A stretch of 64,000 nucleotides of DNA, from contig JBBRCZ010000003.1 of assembly GCA_038204425.1 (NCBI GenBank), positions 64,001-128,000 on the forward strand, written 5' to 3'. The DNA comes from Spirochaetia bacterium. Its GTDB lineage: Bacteria; Spirochaetota; Spirochaetia; DSM-27196; Salinispiraceae. The translations under genes were made by a program, and so were the position numbers. Shown here piece by piece: positions 44,098-44,752 of this stretch. The notes below the pieces were generated by a model, which was not told the DNA's origin, searched no databases, and saw only the letters and a list, made by a program, of their open reading frames with translations. Position 1 is the first letter of the stretch, and each line of letters begins with the position of its first letter.

Positions 44098-44226
44098 AAA
44101 AAAATCTCCGCTGATCGTGACCCCCACTGGTTTGCTATCTCAATGGACCAGTCGACCGGAATAGCACGGAAACACGTTGATTTTAAGTACTACCGGGTCA
44201 CTCGGTTGCCCATGCAGGGCTTTTTG
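44098..44226. ncRNA. Candidate structured non-coding RNA (unassigned)
   Basis: GTGACCC(44117-23)/GGGTCAC(44195-201) encloses ACTGGT/ACCAGT and TGCTAT/ATAGCA pairings. There is no credible ORF. Confidence 0.35.
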
Positions 44227-44234
44227 TTTTTGAA

Positions 44235-44408
44235 TGGAGGTGGCGGGTATCCCTTTCAGTCGTCGACGTCCTGTCGACTCCTTACAGGCCGGCCCACCTG
44301 ACTGGCGGTGGACTTCCTGTCCGCCTTCCTGGGCTAGGCGCCCAGCGTCAGATGGGCTTCGATACCCGTTGCAAATAAAAAAACCCTTGCGTTGCAAGGG
44401 CTTAAATT
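44235..44408 (-). mobile_element. 174-bp structured module bounded by a duplicated tmRNA 3' end (att-like scar or miniature element)
   Basis: TGGAGGTGGCGGGTATC is identical at 44235-44251 and 44409-44425, with a GC-rich multi-hairpin interior. Confidence 0.6.
44377..44400 (-). terminator. Rho-independent terminator of tmRNA
   Basis: Minus strand CCCTTGC-aac-GCAAGGG-TTTTTTT. Confidence 0.85.
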
Positions 44409-44752
44409 TGGAGGTGGCGGGTATCGAACCCGCGTCCTGGTGGGCAGAACGTGAACTTCTACAGGTTTAGTTCATTGTTGTAGTCGGACAGTACGAGCGC
44501 AATGAACAACGCTTTACTATCCCATTCCGGTTAATCTCCCTCATGCAACCCGGACACAGCACTCGGAAAGCCCTGGTTTGTTACAGACCCTAGTTGCCTC
44601 AAGGCGGCGTCAATAAGGGTCCGGCTAAAGCACTTAAGCGGCTAGAGCGTAATCTGCGTTATTATTTGCAGTTATTGTTTTGCCGGTCAGGAGACGACAC
44701 TCCACCTGCAACCCATGCCCATACACGCACCAGTCGAATCCATTACACCCCC
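44409..44752 (-). ncRNA. ssrA: tmRNA (344 nt), tag peptide ANNNADYALAA at 44669-44634
   Basis: 5' end GGGGGTGTAATGGATTCGAC and 3' end GGACGCGGGTTCGATACCCGCCACCTCCA. The acceptor stem has the G3-U70 pair, and the tag ORF ends YALAA*. It lies near smpB. Confidence 0.97.

Follow-up and report, generated by a model that had tools for sequence, protein, structure and literature searches.

What lies between two copies of a tmRNA gene end 174 bp apart, and how did it come to be there? In the window, by which we mean the whole 64,000-nt stretch of spirochaete DNA that was analyzed, the last 17 nt of the tmRNA gene occur a second time behind the gene, and the original prediction had read the intervening stretch as a non-autonomous miniature element or a maintained RNA module rather than the scar of a decayed island. 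On re-examination, the 17-nt direct repeat was exact and the longest perfect direct repeat in the 1.6 kb examined, and its identity ends inside the T-loop as proposed, just 3′ of TTC. The tmRNA gene is the only one of 42 tRNA and tmRNA genes with a 3′ end that recurs nearby outside another tRNA gene. It lies downstream of smpB and an inositol-monophosphatase-family gene, with a convergent FHA gene 460 bp away; as the original prediction had stated, no integrase adjoins the unit. Behind the gene end, in the tmRNA sense, come a terminator-like hairpin, an inverted T-arm copy (anti-T-arm), a GC-rich core, and the exact 17-nt copy:

44409..44752, minus strand: host tmRNA gene, intact, tag ANNNADYALAA (ARAGORN; Rfam RF00023, 156 bits)
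44409..44425, minus strand: proximal copy of the tmRNA 3′ end (from position 57 in the T-loop), within the functional gene
44376..44403, minus strand: intrinsic-terminator-like hairpin with a T run
44358..44368, minus strand: anti-T-arm, an inverted copy of tmRNA positions 54-64
44292..44357, minus strand: left arm of the core, with helix P1 (44347-44357 with 44292-44302) around hairpins P2 and P3
44329-44345, minus strand: P2 hairpin, in the P1-enclosed left arm
44304-44325, minus strand: P3 hairpin with an AGGAA loop, in the P1-enclosed left arm
44252..44290, minus strand: right arm of the core, with short helices, purine internal loops and hairpin P4 as a cap
44262-44278, minus strand: P4 hairpin with an AGGAC loop, capping the right arm
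44235..44251, minus strand: distal direct copy of the final 17 nt of the tmRNA gene
44252..44425, minus strand: single 174-bp repeat unit (gene 3′ end from the T-loop, terminator, anti arm and core)

The last of these spans is what recurs in the tandem arrays of relatives. Counted from the base opposite position 56, the core of the tmRNA unit measures 109 nt, and the right arm, which ends at the junction with the distal copy, is the best-conserved part of the unit. The tmRNA-sense strand folds with a z score of -5.8 (none of 200 shuffles was equally stable) and the opposite strand with one of -4.4. All four helices named in the original prediction are present in the predicted folds, and the module does carry a terminator-like hairpin, at 44381-44403. 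The prediction had also paired the inverted copy with the distal copy; that pairing holds over 8 bp, as the closing helix P0, and is refined by an 11-bp pairing of the same arm with the gene's own T arm. The two pairings are mutually exclusive: the minimum-energy fold of the whole region picks the gene's own T arm, and that of the trimmed unit picks the distal copy. The unit contains three CAGGA words, and searches of the window region and six spirochaete loci against Rfam found no family for the core. Past the distal copy, at 44100-44234, are more weak hairpins and an 11-nt echo of the first terminator stem that is not above chance.

The tmRNA module is one copy of a spirochaete-wide family of gene-less, folded, tRNA-linked repeats, and the earlier reading had missed that the element is not specific to tmRNA. 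Within the same genome, one related stretch came up with blastn and nhmmer; it lies behind tRNA-Leu(GAG) on contig C1. This unit has its own terminator, an inverted arm that fits tRNA-Leu and not tmRNA, the same P2 hairpin, and compensatory changes in the P1 helix; it is truncated, with neither right arm nor distal copy. The P2 stretch common to the two units occurs in none of 150 relatives. Inverted T-arm copies lie within 150 nt of four of the 42 tRNA/tmRNA genes, namely tmRNA, Leu(GAG), Gly(TCC) and Pro(GGG).

A search of 151 genomes at the DNA level matched nine, with ten non-self loci of which nine have the unit layout and one is noise. A pattern for the right arm was found in 24 of 401 class-level genomes (30 matches, compared with four for the reversed control). 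A stricter pattern yielded 116 GTDB loci, and 77 of the 80 titled records belong to Spirochaetota. The three other titled records, L172, L188 and L216 (Planctomycetota, Kosmotogaceae and Calditrichaeota), are either mis-binned contigs or instances of spread outside the spirochaetes. T-loop-like sequence directly follows 123 of 132 motif matches, starting at C56 in 96 of them, and for 75 of the 132 what follows exactly repeats the 3′ end of a gene upstream, with 24 gene types represented, tmRNA among them; among the remaining 57 are contig edges, mismatches and registers that differ by one base. The duplicated gene ends in relatives are mostly 16-22 nt long, some shorter. A covariance model built from 49 units matched 73 of 150 relatives and all seven same-family genomes; this model (R1) misses the truncated tRNA-Leu unit, which was recognized by blastn, nhmmer and reading of the sequence. 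Copy number ranges from 0 to 24 across relatives, and five closed genomes have 24, 21, 13, 7 and 3 copies. The presence of a unit at tmRNA is patchy, with one of the seven same-family genomes having one and six lacking it. In all loci read, the unit lies in the sense of its gene. In viral contigs, a loose pattern gave 36 loci, of which only L096 has a hairpin and tRNA-like tail, and the strict pattern found the L096 contig alone; plasmid and phage collections gave no match. The viral contig L261 is prophage-like and has at its end a tmRNA 3′ fragment with a complete unit behind it.

The original prediction had allowed for an absence of other copies and of covariation; copies occur in the same genome, at GTDB loci and in relatives, and covariation is strong. 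Mutual information, used with no prior structure, recovered helix P0, P1 around P2 and P3, and the right arm with P4. Over 37 pairs, 88.8% of 1787 cells are paired, against 66.2% when shuffled (0 of 500 shuffles as high), with double changes in 28 pairs and slid controls at 35-46% paired; the structure was drawn from the same alignment, the sequences are related, and eight rows sit one base off in P0, which lowers the P0 count. The core measures 98-110 nt in 55 of 86 units, and 75 of the 86 fall within 98-129 nt. G-T pairs are scarce in the stems: P4, collected with a pattern that has no pairing requirement, contains six G-T and seven A-C pairs in 560 cells, and P3 contains five of each in 290 cells, compared with 20 G-T and no A-C pairs in 205 cells of the T stems of the same tRNAs. 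In the unit, G-T pairs are no commoner than A-C pairs, and they are roughly 10 times rarer there than in tRNA stems. Of the two controls, the T stems are the fair one, since the other, 20 G-U pairs in 224 terminator cells, is biased by having its pairs chosen by the folding program. This scarcity hints at single-stranded DNA or at palindromes generated by copying, short of proof; repeated copying of palindromes can also lower G-U content. According to the accessible text of PMC5737381, single-stranded DNA and RNA motifs are hard to separate computationally.

Our main new result is that the inverted arm is matched to the intact host gene across the junction, a property that the original prediction had missed. 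Among 103 distinct units with sufficient upstream sequence, 63 have an arm that matches the local distal copy over at least 8 nt, whereas 1000 permutations gave 3.7 on average and never more than 10. All 46 first units in a second set match the host at positions 55-62, with position 54 matched in 44 and position 53 in 13; this set was pre-selected for a generic arm and a host-matching distal copy, and was free to vary only at positions 57, 59 and 60. In a separate set, 6 of 60 loci lack an anti arm that fits the nearest gene exactly. Canonical arms extend past the junction by AA, opposite an invariant TT, and because the TT is invariant this overhang is uninformative. In a few units, the junction lies 5-7 nt further upstream and the arm moves along with it. 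The overhangs of these shifted-register units are complementary to non-duplicated host bases in five of the five units with a visible host (L141, 5 nt; L235, 3 nt; L198, 2 nt; L445, 3 nt; L444, 4 nt as read by eye). The host triplet varies among them (TAG, TAT, TGG) and the arm tracks the triplet. Since the overhang fits bases outside the duplication, the arm corresponds to the intact gene and not just to its own copy, although the five units, all at tRNA-Thr/Ala, are probably related to each other. Six metagenome matches for register variants included two without a host gene, one truncated and one that is noise. The overhang match may reflect a guide, a copy made during retargeting, or pairing with a precursor RNA. 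Our literature search, whose coverage mostly excluded subscription papers, found no account of a host-matched inverted arm or of spirochaete tRNA-linked repeats. The accessible parts of PMC11109978, PMC6429828, PMC5737381 and the preprint 10.64898/2026.09.22.753630 do not describe the family; the supplements of PMC11109978, which by its accessible text lists 250 mobile or repeat candidates, and of PMC5737381 could hold a related motif.

The arrangement of the units, with one fixed junction, shows signs of mobility. One to six occur per locus, in tandem arrays of complete units with no gene cassettes between them, and within an array they are either near-identical or differ in terminators and cores with the arms kept. 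The far end of an array is ragged, the last copy being cut at many points (approximately 12 to 133 nt among the cases listed). In 24 of 45 units, the 40 nt behind the distal copy are similar to those behind the gene; a general rule that the distal terminator is a duplicate of the proximal one was therefore dropped, and it does not hold for the tmRNA unit (score 16, null mean 14.5). Units also lie behind bare tRNA or gene fragments and behind a prophage end, where a complete unit follows the att fragment and is not split around the prophage. Similar cores are found at different tRNAs within one genome. For 15 of 45 first units, the nearest core is in the same genome, compared with 4.4 expected (11 genomes), and for 8 of 45 it is at the same tRNA type in another genome, compared with 3.5 expected; the 45 are what remained after 15 of 60 loci were dropped, eight without a called host gene, six without an exact arm and one without a match. 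Exchange between loci and vertical descent thus both occur. No circle junction or empty-site joint was seen in the contigs of four sequencing runs, a weak test given that contigs drop rare forms; two of the runs may be where this DNA came from. The contigs of one sequencing run break at the element, and in those of one RNA run the unit is covered only at the shared gene end, with the core uncovered. At L123 and L218, what is presumably the 3′ end motif of a group II intron lies directly before the anti arm, and at L210 a 521-aa transposase-like ORF ends at the same spot; both sit immediately behind the terminator.

In layout, the units match the tRNA-linked repeats (TLRs) of E. coli, a likeness that the earlier reading did not notice. 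As far as the accessible text of PMC8144298 goes, E. coli TLRs lie behind a tRNA or rRNA gene in 1-5 tandem units whose 3′ end repeats the final 18-19 bp of the gene before them, 22 have been recorded at ten loci, they have been described only in Enterobacteriales, and tmRNA is not among their hosts. The same text states that they were described in 1978 and that their function is known only as CsrA binding by three rRNA-linked members: RrA, RrB and RrF, behind 5S rRNA, are transcribed, processed and bound by CsrA. In that text the word "inverted" does not occur, and our literature search found no mechanism for the origin of TLRs. Like E. coli TLRs, the spirochaete units sit directly behind a stable-RNA gene in the same sense, are gene-less and tandem, and end in a duplicated gene end (17 bp here). 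A discrete RNA has been reported for RtT, the tyrT-tyrV repeats. The 178-bp repeats of E. coli K-12 tyrT-tyrV, with spacings of 175, 178 and 178, have an imperfect inverted T-arm copy that closes a 90-nt structured core, and so share the layout and nearly the size of our units. Unlike tyrT, where the junction is at A58, the spirochaete junction is at C56/R57. The RtT model (RF00391) gave no match at E ≤ 1 in the window region and six spirochaete loci (133-138 bits in the E. coli control), and the spirochaete model scored the three E. coli repeats at 7.5-9.5 bits (E 1.1-3.8) in the right register, a level at which homology is not detected. Judged by sequence, the family therefore has the layout of TLRs and is not RtT. 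It is a real element and a novel form of a known, unexplained type of repeat.

Several other systems share individual traits with the units. Tyrosine-integrase islands and prophages are said, in work attributed to Williams from 2002 and 2003, to insert in the T-loop of tRNA and tmRNA genes. Like such islands, the units duplicate the gene 3′ end from the T-loop, leave the gene intact, bring a terminator and accrete in tandem; unlike them, they have neither integrase nor cargo, use one core for 24 gene types and carry a host-matched inverted arm. A crossover in the T-loop should take in all 7 nt of the loop, whereas the spirochaete duplication lacks T54-T55. Integron attC sites have an integron integrase, a cassette context and a crossover at G^TT, whereas the junction here is TT^C, no cassettes lie between units and the integron integrase is not associated with them. 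Elements of the IS91 rolling-circle type use a Y2 transposase and a GTTC target. IS608 guides are 4 nt long and IS608 is not known to make a target duplication; the match here is 8-16 nt long and tailored to each site, and Y1 transposases do not co-occur with the units. By analogy, the units may nevertheless be compared with IS200/IS605 and REP/RAYT elements and with the guide sequences of IS608, as these appear in the accessible parts of PMC5934647, PMC3201880 and PMC3333891: a folded single strand with hairpins, a target chosen by pairing that the element itself carries, and spread with no enzyme of its own.

We found no enzyme for the family. The 445 ORFs from 82 loci, judged from sequence and not with Pfam, include no recurring mobile-element gene and no conserved ORF. 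A Y1 transposase occurs in 27 of 73 carriers and 24 of 77 other genomes (p = 0.49), and an integron integrase in 24 of 73 and 21 of 77 (p = 0.48). This genome does encode a Y1 HUH transposase; none was found in 46 of the 73 carriers, including the closed genomes G003, G006 and G014, where divergent enzymes could escape notice. The reverse transcriptase domain RVT_1 is present in one of five carriers and missing from four, three of them closed genomes, and none was recognized next to units. For Y2 (PF04986), this genome gave no match in a search whose control matched nowhere. All of these absences are weakened by draft genomes, and related genomes are not independent. The tyrosine integrase that the original prediction implied as a partner finds no support. 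An integron integrase (TIGR02249) adjoins units in G073 (C1:3708070-3709635, L418) and in G047 (C133).

The explanation that we favor, with a rough probability of 0.5, is a non-autonomous mobile element that would insert and amplify as a folded single strand at the T-loop junction, with the inverted copy as its built-in guide; of the two options in the original prediction, which our data support against an island scar, this is the first. The strand is more likely to be DNA than RNA. The anti arm could pair with the distal copy of its unit or, without a change of register, with an intact T arm; the alternative pairing would line up the donor junction with the target junction, and strand exchange there would add one unit and leave the gene whole. 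On a move to a new tRNA, both arms would be rewritten from the new host gene, by copying or by short-range gene conversion. The catalyst is more likely to be a chromosomal housekeeping activity than a dedicated neighboring gene. Set against the mobile element are the failure to find an enzyme, the real share of vertical inheritance (8 of 45 versus 3.5), the near-absence from viral contigs with no plasmid or phage match, the 6 of 60 loci lacking an exact arm, and the dependence of the overhang test on five probably related units that pairing with a precursor RNA would fit equally. A bolder extension, which we consider doubtful, is that a folded strand of approximately 110 nt finds any T arm by pairing across the junction, rewrites its guide for each host gene and inserts via a housekeeping enzyme or its own catalysis, and that such self-guided, retargetable insertion is the mechanism behind TLRs.

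A possible alternative, to which we give tentative weight, is an RNA module maintained by the host, acting as a growth-linked CsrA sponge or tuning precursor processing through competition of the anti arm with T-arm folding; arrays and shared cores would then come from ordinary unequal recombination and gene conversion. As in CsrB/RsmZ-type RNAs, GGA lies in hairpin loops (P3 in 53 of 58 variants, P4 in 78 of 112) and is multiplied in arrays, one of which has weak PrrB/RsmZ matches; these score below threshold (28.8 bits, cut-off 44), and 30% of P4 loops are without GGA, 34 of the 112 variants having ACGA instead of AGGA. Csr RNAs, unlike the units, have neither host-matched arms nor a tRNA duplication. 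The invariable sense orientation and the vertical inheritance of some loci agree with a host module, and the rarity of G-U pairs, the position behind a terminator and behind non-functional tRNA fragments, and the range of copy number among relatives do not. CsrA is encoded by 134 of 150 relatives, including this genome, which makes co-occurrence uninformative; four of the 16 relatives without CsrA carry units, and all four are 57-78% complete. The CsrA-binding RrA, RrB and RrF offer a precedent, yet in the accessible text of PMC8144298 the 19 tRNA-operon TLRs of E. coli score below 0.01 as CsrA binders. Mobility through an RNA intermediate, in which the unit would be cut from and spliced into the T-loop as RNA and fixed in DNA by a reverse transcriptase supplied in trans, the anti arm serving as an internal guide sequence, appears improbable. 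The anti arm does reach across the junction in both directions, the canonical junction has a U at the end of its 5′ side, G is the final base of many units, and one fixed plus one ragged end is also typical of retro-insertion. However, G is not universal at the terminal position (other subtypes have C there, together with covarying P5 pairs), Rfam gave no match to a ribozyme or intron family, RVT_1 is lacking from most carriers checked, and group I introns are far larger than the core of approximately 106 nt. Last, the unit might be the scar, or the shared attachment arm, of large integrase-encoding T-loop islands that have lost their cargo, since the 3′ ends of tRNA and tmRNA genes are hot spots for islands, some units have integrase genes or fragments in their vicinity (in G073, in G047, and 2.2 kb from the tRNA-Leu unit), and a gene lies inside the unit region at one locus (L255). 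We consider this very improbable and already largely refuted, as the original prediction had anticipated: core length is tight, the two halves covary across the whole unit, the same core serves 24 host gene types in arrays of complete units, no integrase adjoins the tmRNA unit or recurs beside the family, and the prophage case has its unit unsplit.

The family offers a large covarying alignment, a fixed junction and natural register variants, so that a 130-nt oligonucleotide or transcript would suffice to test the readings above. Should the anti arm be a guide, it would provide a new route to programmable insertion at tRNA safe-harbor sites; if the unit is an RNA module, approximately half of the Spirochaetia genomes sampled would contain an unannotated growth-linked RNA. 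In either case, the units mimic the att scars of islands and will mislead island callers and break assemblies at tRNA genes.

Other modules of related appearance were seen in the same genome (G000). At tRNA-Pro(GGG) (C23:1-181 and the 3′ end of C19), a second, shorter type of unit is present in approximately 1.5 copies, with a single-stem core of approximately 50 nt and a hairpin insert of approximately 40 nt within the duplicated tRNA end; similar inserts occur in G003 (L325) and G006 (L333). At tRNA-Gly(TCC) (C7:1-138), a terminator is followed by an inverted copy of approximately 16 nt of the tRNA end, exactly where the contig ends, probably at a collapsed repeat. At the 5′ ends of C1, C2 and C11, after an apparent 5S rRNA 3′ end (identified by eye), a TLR-like module consists of a terminator, an inverted copy of the last approximately 9 nt, a small GC-rich hairpin and a second terminator copy, and may be compared with rrB of E. 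coli. Downstream of the tRNA-Leu unit (C1:572821-575807) are a short AT-rich ORF, a uracil-DNA-glycosylase-like ORF (by eye) and a tyrosine-integrase fragment, and a second such fragment lies at C1:514088-514342; these fragments and ORFs are possibly decayed island material. The 3′ end of C14 and the 5′ end of C21 carry identical repeats of approximately 32 nt with unique spacers, a CRISPR-like array broken at the contig ends.
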